Of a stretch of DNA of 64,000 nucleotides, positions 3,408 through 27,114 are shown in pieces. The translations under genes were made by a program, and so were the position numbers. The notes under the pieces were generated by a model, which saw only the letters and a program-made list of their open reading frames with translations, made no database searches and had not been told where the DNA came from. Source of the stretch: an uncultured Bifidobacterium sp. (GTDB lineage Bacteria > Verrucomicrobiota > Verrucomicrobiia > Limisphaerales > JADLHS01); contig CAZLOH010000023.1 of the NCBI GenBank assembly GCA_964561105.1, positions 14,025-78,024 of the forward strand, in the 5' to 3' direction. Position 1 is the first letter of the stretch, and every line of letters starts with the position of its first letter.

Positions 3408-3977
3408 TTATTTTTCGACCAACGGAATAAAAATCTTCTGTCCGACTTTTAACTTGAGCGGATCAAGGCCCGGGTTCGCCTTCTGGATGAGTTCGGCCGT
3501 CAGCTTGAGGTTTTTCTCCTTGTTATACGCGGAGGCAATGCTGGACAACGTGTCACCGGAGGCAATCGTGTGTTCGATGGCTTTGTCCGGCAGATCTGAA
3601 CGCGAACCGCCGGAACTCGTCCTGGGCGGTGGCGCAACCACCGGTGCCTTGGCGATCTTTTCAATCGCCTTAAGGATGACTTCGCGATCCGTCTTGCGGT
3701 TGTCCTCGACCTCCTGGACCTGCTTGGCCAGGGCGCGCAGGTCTTCCTGGCTCGCGAAGTTGCCCTTCGGCTGGTTTTGAAGCTGTTCGCGCAGAGTCTG
3801 CACCTCGCGCATCAGTGAATCAATCTGCCGTTTTTGATTCGCCTTGTCTTCGAGGAGATCCTGCACGTAACCGTTCAATTGATTGACGCGTTCATTGAGC
3901 GCTGCCACGTCCTGGGCGGGCAACTTGAAGGTCGCCAGCGTGGTCAGCACCGTGAGCCAAAGAAAAATTCGTTTCAT
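3408..3977 (-). CDS. LysM peptidoglycan-binding domain protein with signal peptide and coiled coil
   Basis: N-terminal MKRIFLWLTVLTTLATF signal, a Q/E-rich coiled region, and a C-terminal LysM (HTIASGDTLSSIASAYN...LKVGQKIFIP). Confidence 0.7.
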   Translation of the reverse strand: MKRIFLWLTVLTTLATFKLPAQDVAALNERVNQLNGYVQDLLEDKANQKRQIDSLMREVQTLREQLQNQPKGNFASQEDLRALAKQVQEVEDNRKTDREVILKAIEKIAKAPVVAPPPRTSSGGSRSDLPDKAIEHTIASGDTLSSIASAYNKEKNLKLTAELIQKANPGLDPLKLKVGQKIFIPLVEK

Positions 3978-4116
3978 GTGCCGACAATAAGAAGCCGGCG
4001 AAAAAGGCGCAAGCGAATCGGCGACGAAAATTGGCCGTTGGGTGTGAGACAAAATTCTTCGAGTGGGGTTTTTGGCTGGTTTTTTGAGATGTGGATGCCT
4101 AGTGTGCTAGGCATAC

Positions 4117-5741
4117 ATGAATCAATCCAAGAAAACTCATCTCCTGGAACAGATCGCCGCCATCCCTGCCATGGAGCGGGGCAAACTCTCCCCCCATGCC
4201 TCGGGCCGGCATCAAAAACTCCAATGCTGGCAGGAGGGCAAGAATCACACCCGGCATGTCGCGGCGGACGAACTGCCCGCAGTGGAAGGCGCACTCGCAG
4301 GCTATGCCCAATACCGGCAACTGACCGCGGAGTATGCGGACCTGGTCATCCAGGAAACCCGTCAAAACATCGCGGCCGCAAAAAAAAAGAACTGCTCCCG
4401 CCCCCCGCCCTCCTCGCCCAGGAAGAAGAAATCCAGCAACTGATCGCCCGCTTTGAATCCGGCGAGTTGCAGGGCCAGGGCGTCGCCCAACTGGAAATCC
4501 TGGTGCGGACGGCGGTGTTCAAATCCGCCAACGCCCTGGTCGGTTGGTTGCTGCAGAAAGCGGCGGATCGGGCCGATGCCGGCTATCAGCCCAAAGCCGG
4601 CCAGACTCGCAAGGGGCGGGAAACCATCGGGGTGCAAGGGATATTTGGCCGCTTCCAGCTGGAGCGGGATTACTACTACCACCCCGGCAAGGATCAAGGC
4701 CACCATCCCGCGGATGCCGCCCTGGGTTTGGAAGTGGGCTATACGCCGGCCCTGGCCAAGCTGATCTGTCTGGAGGGGGCCGACGAGCCAACCTACCTGA
4801 AAGCCGAGCGGCATCTGGAGCAGACCGGTGGCATTACGGTTTCGGCGCGGCAAATTCAACGGGTCGTGCAACGCGTCGGCAGCCGTGCGCAACAATGGCA
4901 GGCCCGCGAGCGCCCACCCGGCGAGTGCGACGCGCCGGTCCTGTATGTCAGTGCCGACGGCACGGGCGTGCCGATGACCGCCCCGGAGTTAAAAGGCCGG
5001 CGCGGCAAGCAGGCCGACGGCACGGCCAAGACGCGCCAGGTGTATCTGGGCTGCGTCTTCACCCAGCACCGGAGAGATGAGCACGGCCATCCAGTGCGGG
5101 ACTATGAATCCACGACCTACGTTTCGAGTTTCCAATCCATTGATGAATTCGGGCCGTTGTTGCGGCAGGAAGCCCTGGGCCGCGGGATGGGCAGCGCGGG
5201 CAAGGTGGTGTTGCTGATTGACGGCGCGGCGGGCCTGGAAAACATGGGCCGGCTGTGCTTCAAGGACTGTGTGCAGATCGTGGATTTCTACCACGCGATG
5301 GAACACGCCGGCCACGTGTTGGAGGCGTGGCTGGGCAAAGGCCATCCCGATTATCAGAAGCACTTGCGTCGTTGGGCCAAACGGTTGCTCAAAGACAAGG
5401 TTCAGGCGTTGATTCAGGAGACGCGCCAGCAGTGTGCGGGCACGGCGCAGGAAGCGGCGGTGGAACAGGCCCTGGGATACTTCGTCCGCAACGTGAGCCG
5501 GATGCACTACGGCACGTTCCGGGCGGCGGGCTGGTTCATCGGCTCGGGCGTGGTGGAAGCGGGTTGCAAGACCGTCATTGGGGGGCGGTGCAAACAATCC
5601 GGCATGTTCTGGTCGAAGTCCGGTGCCGAAAACATCCTCGCGCTGCGCTGCCTTCAGAGCAGCCGGAGACTCGAGGACTTCTGGAAATACCGACTCAACC
5701 AACACGCCGCTCGCAACGACGCCCTACCGCTGGCGGCATAA
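4117..5741 (+). CDS. DDE transposase (ISKra4-like), encoded in two frames joined at a slippery site
   Basis: N-terminal part is in frame +1 (MNQSKKTHLLEQIAAIPAMERGKLSPHASGRHQ...). The remainder (...VQIVDFYHAMEHAGHV...GWFIGSGVVEAGCKTVIGGRCKQSGMFWS...) is in the -1 frame from 4389 onward. Motifs FYHAxEH and GSGxxEAxCK are recalled from memory as ISKra4-family features. The combined length of ~542 aa is close to single-ORF family members. Confidence 0.7.
4383..4389 (+). other. A_AAA_AAG slippery heptamer within an A9 run (candidate -1 ribosomal frameshift or transcriptional slippage site)
   Basis: Upstream-frame codons are AAA(4381-83) AAA(4384-86) AAG(4387-89). A -1 slip resumes at GAA 4389 in the downstream transposase frame. 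Confidence 0.5.
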
Positions 5742-5838
5742 TGGAAGAATTTTGTCTCACACCCTTGGCCGTTGCGCTTGGGCGATTGGGGCTGGGGTTG
5801 AAGAACGCACCGGGAGGCTCGGCAACGTGGATTGAAAG

Positions 5839-5914
<76 letters not shown>

Positions 5915-6024: not shown

Positions 6025-6099
6025 GACCCTATGGTCTAGCGGTTAGGACACCTCCCTTTCACGGAGGTAGCCCGGGTTCGAGTCCCGGTAGGGTCGCCA
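6025..6099 (+). tRNA. tRNA-Glu (anticodon TTC)
   Basis: GACCCTATGGTCTAGCGGTTAGGACACCTCCCTTTCACGGAGGTAGCCCGGGTTCGAGTCCCGGTAGGGTCGCCA has a 7-bp acceptor stem, a T-arm GTTCGAGTC and anticodon loop CTTTCAC. Confidence 0.85.
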
Positions 6100-25728: not shown

Positions 25729-27114
25729 ATGAAAAAAAATCACCACCAACGCGCAATCGGTTTCACCCGCCGCCATTTCCTACGCGGGCTGGGGGCCTGC
25801 GTGGCGTTGCCGGCCTTTGAATCGCTGTCTCCGGTTCGATTGCTCGCCGCCGGCGCCAAACCGACTCACTCACTGGCGACGACGGCCACGGGAGCGCCGT
25901 TGCGCACGGCCTTTATTTACTTTCCCAACGGCTCGATTCCGTCCGCTTGGTGGCCGGAGACCGATGGCACGGACTTCAAACTCAATCGCACGATGCAATC
26001 CCTGGCGCCGGTGCGACAACACCTGCAACTGCTGGGTGAGTTGCAACACTTGAACGCCACGGCCGGTCATGACGGCGGCGGCGATCATGCGCGCGCCAAT
26101 GGCACGTTCCTGACCGGGGTGCGCATGAGAAAGAGCGCCACGGACATTCATGCCGGGATTTCGATTGACCAGGTCATGGCGCGAAAACTCCAGGATACCA
26201 TGCGCTTTCCCTCCCTGGAATTGACGTGCGATGCCGGGCGCAACACCGGCGCGTGCGATTCCGGATATTCCTGCGCCTATCAATACAATATCGCCTGGAG
26301 TTCACCGACCACGCCCATGACGCCGGAGGCGAATCCGCGCCAGGTCTTCGAGCGACTCTTCGGCGCCGGCTCTCCCGGCGAACGGGCGGCTGATCTCCAG
26401 CGCCGCCGGCAGGAGCAGCGATCCATCCTGGACTTCATCGTCGAAGATGCGCGCGACATGCAGCGCCGGCTCAACGCGCGAGACAAGGACAAGCTGGACC
26501 AATACTTGACCGGCGTTCGCGAATTGGAGCAACGCATCCAGCAGGCCGAACGCATAGGCGAGGTTAAGGATCCCAATGTCGCGACTCCCGAAGGCATTCC
26601 GCAGAATTATGGCGAGCATATCCAGGTGATGTTTGAAATTCTCACCCTCGCGTTTCAGACCGATTCCACGCGCGTCGCCACCCTCTTGCTGGCCCATGAC
26701 GGGAGCAACAAATCCTTCGCCGAGATCGGAGTCCCGGAAGGCCACCACGACTTGTCCCATCATTCCGGCGATGAAGAGAAGATTCAGAAGTTAATGGAAA
26801 TTGATCAGTGGTATGTGGCGCAGTTCTCCAAATTCCTGCAAAAGCTGGAGACGCTCAAGGACGTGGACGGCCACTCCCTGTTGCACAATTCCATGCTGGT
26901 TTACGGCGGCGGCAATGCCGATGGCAACCGGCACACGCACTTCAACCTGCCCATCATCCTCGCGGGAAATGGCGGCGGCACGTTGACTCCCGGACGTTAC
27001 GTAAAACACGGAGCGGTACCGGCCACGAATCTTTTCCTCAGCATGGCGGACCGGATGGGGCTAACCGGCCTGGAACGCTTCGGCGATTCCACCGGACGGC
27101 TGGCGAACATTTAG
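25729..27114 (+). CDS. DUF1501 (sulfatase-like) protein with Tat signal
   Basis: RRHFLRGLGACVALPAF twin-arginine motif; conserved partner of DUF1549/DUF1553 proteins. Confidence 0.8.
   Translation: MKKNHHQRAIGFTRRHFLRGLGACVALPAFESLSPVRLLAAGAKPTHSLATTATGAPLRTAFIYFPNGSIPSAWWPETDGTDFKLNRTMQSLAPVRQHLQLLGELQHLNATAGHDGGGDHARANGTFLTGVRMRKSATDIHAGISIDQVMARKLQDTMRFPSLELTCDAGRNTGACDSGYSCAYQYNIAWSSPTTPMTPEANPRQVFERLFGAGSPGERAADLQRRRQEQRSILDFIVEDARDMQRRLNARDKDKLDQYLTGVRELEQRIQQAERIGEVKDPNVATPEGIPQNYGEHIQVMFEILTLAFQTDSTRVATLLLAHDGSNKSFAEIGVPEGHHDLSHHSGDEEKIQKLMEIDQWYVAQFSKFLQKLETLKDVDGHSLLHNSMLVYGGGNADGNRHTHFNLPIILAGNGGGTLTPGRYVKHGAVPATNLFLSMADRMGLTGLERFGDSTGRLANI

Follow-up and report, generated by a model that had tools for sequence, protein, structure and literature searches.

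The stretch of DNA considered here (the window, 64,000 nucleotides in its full length) derives from an uncultured bacterium deposited as Bifidobacterium sp. and placed by GTDB in the Verrucomicrobiota (GenBank assembly GCA_964561105.1, contig CAZLOH010000023.1, positions 14,025 to 78,024 of the forward strand), and it contains a complete insertion sequence of the ISKra4 family. The transposase of this element is divided between two open reading frames (ORFs), orfA and orfB, which lie in frames 0 and -1 and meet at a run of nine A's followed by a G (A9G). The comparative data presented below indicate that this tract is very probably a site of programmed recoding. The features on which the analysis builds are the following:

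4040 to 5764, plus strand: complete insertion sequence of the ISKra4 family, 1725 bp, with inverted repeats, target duplication and a match to NF033572
4031 to 4039, no strand: left copy of the 9-bp target-site duplication, TTGGCCGTT, identical to 5765-5773
5765 to 5773, no strand: right copy of the 9-bp target-site duplication, TTGGCCGTT, same as the left copy
4040 to 4060, plus strand: left terminal inverted repeat, GGGTGTGAGACAAAATTCTTC, 21 bp, starting with GGG
5744 to 5764, minus strand: right terminal inverted repeat, the perfect reverse complement of 4040-4060
4117 to 4443, plus strand: orfA, 108 amino acids (aa), with its ATG at 4117 and its stop codon at 4441-4443, 53 nt past the run
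4380 to 4388, plus strand: A9 run, predicted recoding site and candidate RNA-polymerase slippage site, the only homopolymer of at least 9 bases in the window
4383 to 4389, plus strand: A_AAA_AAG heptamer, candidate -1 ribosomal slip site, in X_XXY_YYZ phase with orfA
4389 to 5741, plus strand: orfB portion in the -1 frame, 450 codons plus stop, a linker followed by the ISKra4 DDE-type catalytic region

The junction reads TCGCGGCCGC AAAAAAAAA G AACTGC over positions 4370-4400 and GCGGCCGC-AAAAAAAAA-G-AACTGC over positions 4372-4395, and the orfA codons that cross the run are GCA AAA AAA AAG AAC, with the G at 4389. Sequence and codon phase thereby agree with what an earlier note on this DNA had described, namely an A9 run with an in-phase A_AAA_AAG at 4383-4389 exactly where frame 0 gives way to frame -1. 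When base 4389 is read twice, a product of 541 aa results (...NIAAAKKK|ELLPPPALLAQEEE..., with ...NIAAAKKKELLPPPALLAQEEEIQQLIAR as the peptide across the OrfA-OrfB junction), in keeping with the fusion of about 542 aa that had been proposed. A longer ORF of 635 aa at 3834-5741 was discarded as an artefact, the -1 frame being open by chance through the left repeat and into the flank. By itself, the A9/heptamer motif is statistically unremarkable: a dinucleotide-preserving model expects about 0.7 runs of at least nine A or T per window, and AAAAAAG is observed 4 times on the two strands of the window against about 8.8 expected. Its significance lies in its position at the frame junction and in its conservation in relatives. 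The only other long A-run of the window, an A8 at 25732-25739, is ordinary, as it forms the start of a 461-aa ORF (ATG AAA AAA AAT...) with no frame disruption.

The boundaries and the family of the element are well defined. Specifically, the window element carries the ISKra4 hallmarks of perfect 21-bp inverted repeats starting with GGG and a 9-bp duplication, and the inverted-repeat sequence has two matches in the window against none expected by chance. Relatives share these termini and likewise have 9-bp duplications. The identical insertion (same flanks, 0 mismatches, A9) was assembled independently from three sequencing runs, which rules out an assembly error as the source of the A9. The assignment to ISKra4 made in the earlier note is borne out by the fused transposase, which scores 248.8 bits against the NCBIfam model NF033572 (cutoff 205). 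Residues 140-518 align to model positions 38-421 of 422, so that the family model starts about 10 residues past the shift site, near fused residue 103. Candidate catalytic residues are acidic positions such as D281, D369, D390 and E481, which are invariant across 27 sequences; the structure model of the catalytic region is of mixed confidence. A simple sigma-70 promoter scan of the element and window region gave zero matches.

In one respect the element differs from the ISKra4 group proper, whose transposases are encoded by a single ORF, as it has two in frames 0 and -1. The rows for this group in the table of Guerillot 2014 (PMC3942029) give transposases of 440-461 aa, direct repeats (DR) of 9 and ends in ...CCC. 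In length, OrfB by itself thus matches a complete ISKra4-group transposase, and OrfA is an additional N-terminal module. As such, the fusion itself stands, and the statement that it has the size of single-ORF ISKra4 relatives does not, since the annotated ones, at 440-461 aa, correspond to OrfB alone. Annotated plasmid ISKra4 transposases found by tblastn align only from residue 106 on, at 24-28.5% identity, and no counterpart of OrfA was found in the plasmid ISKra4 genes matched in this search, which are distant matches. Of three unannotated plasmid matches, the two from cyanobacteria, one an intact single ORF of 457 aa and the other a degraded copy, are uninformative.

To place the junction in its wider context, one genome per species was scanned, which yielded 80 related loci, mostly in metagenome-assembled genomes (MAGs) of Verrucomicrobiota; the orfA and orfB halves were located at each locus by tblastn and the junctions were read, leaving 62 that are non-redundant. 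This is the comparison of orthologues for a conserved A9 and two frames that the earlier note had proposed, and its outcome is clear: orfB lies in the -1 frame at the A-run in 54 of the 62, with identities to the window of 30-93% for the orfA part and 60-92% for the orfB part. Among these 54 the run is A9 in 46, A8 in 7 and A5G in 1; none combines an A6 or A7 with the -1 arrangement, though the heptamer requires just A6G. The run is followed directly by G in 46 relatives and by C in the other 8, and seven relatives retain A9 with C instead of the terminal G. Of the 54, 53 have an A-rich heptamer in phase, and in most relatives the orfA stop follows 49-56 nt past the run.

Protein collections contain the two halves largely as separate entries. 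Of the 120 best matches in a protein search, 106 are orfB-only, among them every listed match of at least 80% identity, and 14 are full-length at 67-75% identity. At 90% identity, the OrfA cluster comprises 35 members and the OrfB cluster 233; all 15 of the OrfA members listed have 108 aa, 12 of the 15 listed for OrfB have 424 aa, and every source name given in either cluster is 'hypothetical protein'. In metagenome contigs, a pattern with the exact flanks and a free run length gave no match, while a relaxed pattern returned mostly chance matches and two true relatives, both with A8G and both in the -1 arrangement.

Several lines of evidence argue that the split elements are functional. In 17 comparisons of split with split elements, the ratio of nonsynonymous to synonymous substitution rates (dN/dS) is 0.09-0.26 for orfB, at dS 0.12-1.15, and 0.01-0.44 for orfA, values which indicate that both ORFs are under purifying selection. 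Furthermore, one MAG holds five A9G copies with identities of 99.9% or more and another holds six at 99.7-100%; in both MAGs the copies occupy different sites, most of them with a 9-bp target duplication of their own. Clean target duplications also surround the elements at loci L002, L004, L008, L009, L010, L014 and L016. Just behind the run, 7-10 codons past it, a peptide motif LLAQ(E/D)(E/Q)EIQQL is strongly conserved, for instance as LLAQEEEIQQL. In 35 of 53 split elements no ATG, GTG or TTG lies between the upstream stop of the orfB frame and this motif, and in five of these 35 the TAA from which the orfB frame opens includes an A of the run, the first one. With no start codon ahead of it, the motif peptide can in these 35 be translated only via entry at the run. 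Conservation in 54 of 62 relatives, purifying selection and multicopy split elements together support the proposal that a recoding site at this position joins OrfA to the catalytic OrfB.

A minority of relatives depart from the split state. An A10 run makes the gene single-frame in L006, L067 and the P0070 lineage, A10 being the genomic equivalent of a transcript with one A added; L001, with A7, is also among the deviants, and L010, L039 and L065 carry A8 and are out of register, all of them as single tips. When the orfB parts are arranged in a distance tree, split elements with an A-run (mostly A9) extend across the whole tree and each deviant is a lone tip among split relatives, which argues that the two-frame state is ancestral and maintained, and that fusions arise repeatedly. 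Within this clade, the single-ORF proteins of about 545 aa are derived fusions. The earlier note had named single-frame orthologues with an A8 or A10 run as the finding that would reveal a simple indel. Taken literally, L006, L067 and P0070 are such orthologues, but they are a minority of scattered derived tips, and the test as worded proves too strict.

These variants are also informative in their own right. P0070 (A10, in-frame, with a single ORF of 547 aa; L082-L087) has inserted at six distinct sites, seen in contigs from different samples, and is indexed in 52 blocks of a public collection. Its presence at six sites shows that the fused product is an active transposase, and the lineage looks like a constitutively fused variant in active expansion. 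L081 (P0005), L088 (P0016) and L035, by comparison, have kept A9G and owe their single frame to a different change, an indel or an extra base within the linker or next to it; a slip at the run would here cut the transposase short instead of completing it, so that the logic of the switch would be inverted. Finally, MAG MFD05512 (L008-L010) contains two A9G copies together with L010, which has A8G, is out of register and is 100% identical to L009 in its orfB part; L010 either arose by replication slippage very recently or reflects a homopolymer miscall in that assembly.

Two alternatives to recoding would locate the cause of the split in the DNA itself. The simpler one, which the earlier note had kept in play, is an ordinary inactivating frameshift, with the element being a pseudogene in decay or a defective copy that intact copies mobilise in trans. 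It would fit with the indel-prone nature of A9 runs, with public gene calls that treat the halves as separate hypothetical proteins, and with the existence of single-ORF relatives. However, 54 of 62 diverged relatives share the arrangement and are otherwise undisrupted, and purifying selection acts strongly on both ORFs. Split elements occupy the whole tree, in which fused forms appear as derived single tips, and both the target duplication and the inverted repeats of the window element are perfect. A systematic homopolymer miscall is likewise unlikely, given three independent assemblies of the window insertion and many short-read assemblies. The comparative data thus reject the simple indel, and this explanation is effectively refuted, with almost no probability left to it. 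The other alternative is a phase-variation tract, in which A9 represents the OFF state and replication slippage to A10 in a few cells generates a fused, active gene. Homopolymers are hypermutable (PMC3711429), the out-of-register A8 variants L010, L065 and L039 show that the run length mutates, and fused A10 forms exist (L006 and L067), with P0070 spreading to many sites. Yet an A10 parent would spawn A10 daughters, and the MAG copies are A9G in five of five and six of six cases. In addition, A9 persists over lineages separated by a dS of about 1, run-length variants are scattered single tips with no sign of a balanced polymorphism, and all three independent assemblies of the window insertion have A9. 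Switching at the DNA level is therefore a very improbable account of the clade.

The available data is most compatible with a model of programmed recoding in an active insertion sequence, in which standard expression would yield only OrfA (108 aa), ending 53 nt past the run, and a minority of expression events would shift to the -1 frame at the run to give the 541-aa OrfA-OrfB transposase. The main route would most likely be slippage of the RNA polymerase, which adds one untemplated A so that the ribosome then reads an A10 mRNA in the usual way. A contribution from ribosomal -1 slippage on the embedded A_AAA_AAG is possible, and both routes would lead to the same 541-aa protein. Full-length transposase would in this way be scarce and transposition would be kept low. 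Anatomy, conservation, purifying selection, the recent transposition of split copies and the lack of structure are demonstrated by the sequences; we infer both the slipping machine and the efficiency of the shift.

The constraint on the tract reaches well beyond the heptamer. Specifically, the three further upstream positions are all A in 46 of the 54 relatives, and the nearest two are A in 53. The codon that precedes the Lys codons ends in A whatever residue it encodes, being GCA, TCA, TTA, CTA, GTA or ATA (Ala, Ser, Leu, Val and Ile across lineages). At fourfold-degenerate sites of the same genes A makes up only 6.5% (n=14,543), compared with an A at the outermost run position in 46 of 54 relatives, and AAA accounts for 51% of the Lys codons elsewhere in these genes. 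Judged by these codon choices, selection spans all nine A's and not the heptamer alone.

RNA structure provides no support for a classical stimulator. The earlier note had suggested folding the downstream sequence in search of a stimulatory hairpin or pseudoknot, and none was found: the 91 nt downstream of the run in the window are indistinguishable from shuffled sequences (z=0.11). A hairpin or pseudoknot 5-9 nt past the heptamer is absent, and in 53 relatives the 40 and 70 nt that follow the run show significantly less structure than the gene background (-16.1 vs -21.1 kcal/mol for the 70 nt, p=1e-7). In the window's own gene, no stretch is less structured than the 70 nt behind the run, at -4.2 kcal/mol. 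An upstream hairpin of the Roseiflexus kind was also considered and rejected, the upstream 40 nt in 53 elements being ordinary when set against other stretches of the same genes (median percentile 0.46, p=0.53); by eye, GC-rich stems can be seen upstream of the run in several relatives, for example CCCGCCAG-CAA-CTGGCGGG. Inspection by eye, in place of a systematic scan, revealed no GGAGG-like Shine-Dalgarno element upstream of the run in the window (CATCGCGGCCGC).

A conserved run of nine or eight A's, in combination with a conserved orfA/orfB organisation, has been interpreted as purposeful transcriptional slippage (Baranov 2005, PMC1088944), and run length is conserved in just this manner here, with 46 A9 and 7 A8 among the 54 junctions in the -1 arrangement. 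Because all nine A's are constrained and stimulatory structure is lacking, polymerase slippage is favoured, and within recoding a polymerase-dominated or mixed mechanism is the option towards which the sequence evidence leans on balance. Of the two routes that the earlier note had offered, a -1 slip and transcriptional slippage on the A9, recoding as such is upheld, and the transcriptional route, which was placed second there, is at least as likely as the ribosomal one.

Several considerations weigh against a leading role of the polymerase. Longer A-runs might raise ribosomal slippage too, through sliding of the ribosome on poly(A). The G at the end of the optimal ribosomal heptamer is likewise well conserved (46 of 54), and A_AAA_AAG is intact in six of the seven A8 variants. 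Because the protein is identical whichever machine slips, it does not reveal the mechanism, and as any A-run of eight or more holds an in-phase slippery heptamer, codon phase cannot discriminate between them either. Moreover, the direction of the shift is nearly uniform, with 54 relatives in -1 vs 3 out of register. A uniform direction has been proposed to indicate ribosomal frameshifting and the occurrence of both +1 and -1 orthologues to indicate transcriptional realignment (Antonov 2013, PMC3711429), and by this heuristic the present distribution falls on the ribosomal side.

A purely ribosomal mechanism, in which two Lys tRNAs re-pair in the -1 frame on A_AAA_AAG and the extra A's are incidental or raise slippage, accordingly deserves serious consideration. 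It is in line with the phase of the heptamer, with its terminal G in 46 of 54 relatives, with the complete heptamer in six of seven A8 variants and with the conserved shift direction (PMC3711429). Furthermore, A_AAA_AAG ranks with the most efficient heptamers of E. coli (PMC4066793), no stimulator has been established for the frameshifting of IS1, and the main text of Guerillot 2014 (PMC3942029) reads the conserved -1 frameshift of the ISMich2 group as translational. An A6G would suffice for such a mechanism, yet three more upstream A's are present in 46 of 54 relatives, against a background of 6.5% for the outermost position. Eight elements lack the terminal G, and seven of these retain A9. 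The region downstream has no hairpin or pseudoknot and folds significantly less than the remaining gene, and without stimulators the ratio of motif to background in E. coli is only 2.1-10 (PMC4066793). Finally, roughly every second Lys codon in these genes is AAG, which suggests that the hosts carry tRNA-Lys(CUU). This tRNA lowers slippage on AAG in E. coli; the tRNAs encoded in the window are tRNA-Phe and tRNA-Glu only. Taken together, these points leave a ribosome-only mechanism as a substantial but lesser possibility.

Comparison with known systems helps to define what is shared and what is new, beginning with the closest relatives of the element. As set out in the main text of Guerillot 2014 (PMC3942029), which defined the p-MULT 4 (ISKra4) lineages with Mutator-like transposases, the elements of the ISMich2 group all have a two-ORF transposase with a conserved -1 frameshift that was considered programmed and translational. 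The window clade has the same transposase family, the two ORFs and the conserved -1 frameshift (54 of 62 here) in common with this group, a likeness of organisation. The ISKra4-group rows of the same source match the 9-bp duplication, the GGG ends and the 1725-bp length of the window element. Its main text does not describe the slip motif, the conservation of the A9 or the absence of structure, and does not report the family in Verrucomicrobia.

With regard to transcriptional slippage, the A9/A8 insertion sequences of Baranov 2005 (PMC1088944) and the A9 of Thermus thermophilus dnaX resemble the window clade in their length-conserved run, their two ORFs, the fusion by one added A and the fact that structure is not required. 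The published elements come from Deinococcus, Nostoc, Mesorhizobium, Streptococcus and Sulfolobus, and ISKra4 is not among these cases (PMC1088944). Unlike them, the window run ends in an optimal ribosomal heptamer, and slippage is here deduced from sequence. In an insertion sequence of Roseiflexus (T5C5; Atkins 2016, PMC5009743), the transposase is produced by realignment of the RNA polymerase at a short slippery motif, as proposed here. That system needs a nascent-RNA hairpin directly 5' of the motif, whereas the GC-rich sequence upstream of the run in the present elements folds no better than other stretches of their genes.

On the ribosomal side, IS1 (A_AAA_AAC), IS911, IS3 and IS150 (A_AAA_AAG) and E. 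coli dnaX have an in-phase slippery heptamer as in the window. Elements of the IS1/IS3 type also share with it an OrfA stop shortly past the site, an OrfAB product that is the transposase and, in the proposed model, a low efficiency that limits transposition. Sites of the IS3 family and of dnaX, however, make use of a hairpin or pseudoknot downstream, in many cases together with a Shine-Dalgarno-like element upstream. No such feature is present or conserved in the window clade, and the constraint in this clade reaches nine A's, beyond the heptamer of the IS1, IS3 and dnaX sites. The families listed as using frameshifting in a 2016 review of recoding are IS1, IS3, IS5 and IS630 (PMC5009743). 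As such, the clade is a currently unannotated branch of a known kind of system, and what is new is the conservation of the full A9 together with the absence of stimulators.

Structure models offer a first view of the two modules that recoding would connect. The model of OrfA (mean predicted local distance difference test score, pLDDT, 85.5) consists of a helix, a three-stranded sheet and a long helix. Searches of this model against the PDB gave no significant match, with all E-values above 0.1 and a weak likeness to sheet-plus-helix binders of the Sac7d or AP2 type. Against DUF6788 (Pfam PF20586), OrfA scores 15.4 bits in the window and 36.8 bits in the relative P0073, above the cutoff of 27.2. 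On its own, OrfA may act as a DNA-binding regulator. In the model of the fused protein, the KKK encoded by the run (residues 89-91) opens a low-confidence linker (residues 88-102), which separates the confidently folded N-terminal domain from the remaining protein. Window OrfA and its cluster at 90% identity or above lack seven residues in the region of the beta-hairpin (residues 26-33), which in the window reads GRH where relatives have a nearly invariant GPY motif. The OrfA module of the window is thus a divergent variant that is still under purifying selection.

The A-run also coincides with breaks in sequence identity between some relatives. In L018 and L024, which belong to the same MAG (runs at L018:3252-3260 and L024:330-338), identity in 30-nt windows is 47-57% up to the run and 97-100% just past it, with means of 42.7% upstream and 93.6% downstream. 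The pairs L018/L024, L052/L057 and L071/L073 are mosaic in this way, with 83-94% nucleotide identity in orfB and the right part, 36-56% in orfA and the left part, and the break at the A-run; a control comparison of the window with L002 has no such break. Some elements share a right end with orfB that is 94-100% identical, next to a left end with orfA of only about 45-55% identity. This pattern suggests an exchange of orfA and orfB modules between elements at the run, with faster evolution of orfA or assembly chimeras as alternatives. That the A9G tract doubles as a recombination seam for module exchange among the insertion-sequence lineages is a rather doubtful possibility; if it were true, DNA-recognition and catalytic modules would be reshuffled at the recoding site itself.

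Regarding the insertion site, several target duplications resemble -35 hexamers, for example TTGGCCGTT, TTGAATCGG, ccTTGATTc, acCTTGACT and ctcTTGATT (window and flanks of L016, L020, L022, L041 and L049). They recall the promoter-proximal insertion, upstream of sigma-A promoters, that the main text of Guerillot 2014 (PMC3942029) describes for ISKra4-group elements. In the window, the gene for a LysM-domain protein (3408-3977, minus strand; probable start MKRIFLWLTVL...) has the insertion sequence on its upstream side at a distance of about 60 bp, and the insertion may affect the expression of this gene. On its other side, a tRNA-Phe(GAA) gene on the minus strand (5839-5914) is located 75 bp from the element, and tRNA-Glu(UUC) (6025-6099) follows just beyond.

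The findings leave existing knowledge of how insertion sequences limit their own transposition unchanged, and they have direct consequences for annotation: the two halves, which currently figure as 'hypothetical proteins', should be described as one ISKra4-family transposase with a programmed shift. In addition, with more than 50 diverged lineages and natural A10, A8, A9C and linker-indel variants, run length and heptamer vary separately in this clade. It is thereby a good system in which to apportion polymerase slippage and ribosomal frameshifting at an A9G tract that is free of stimulators.

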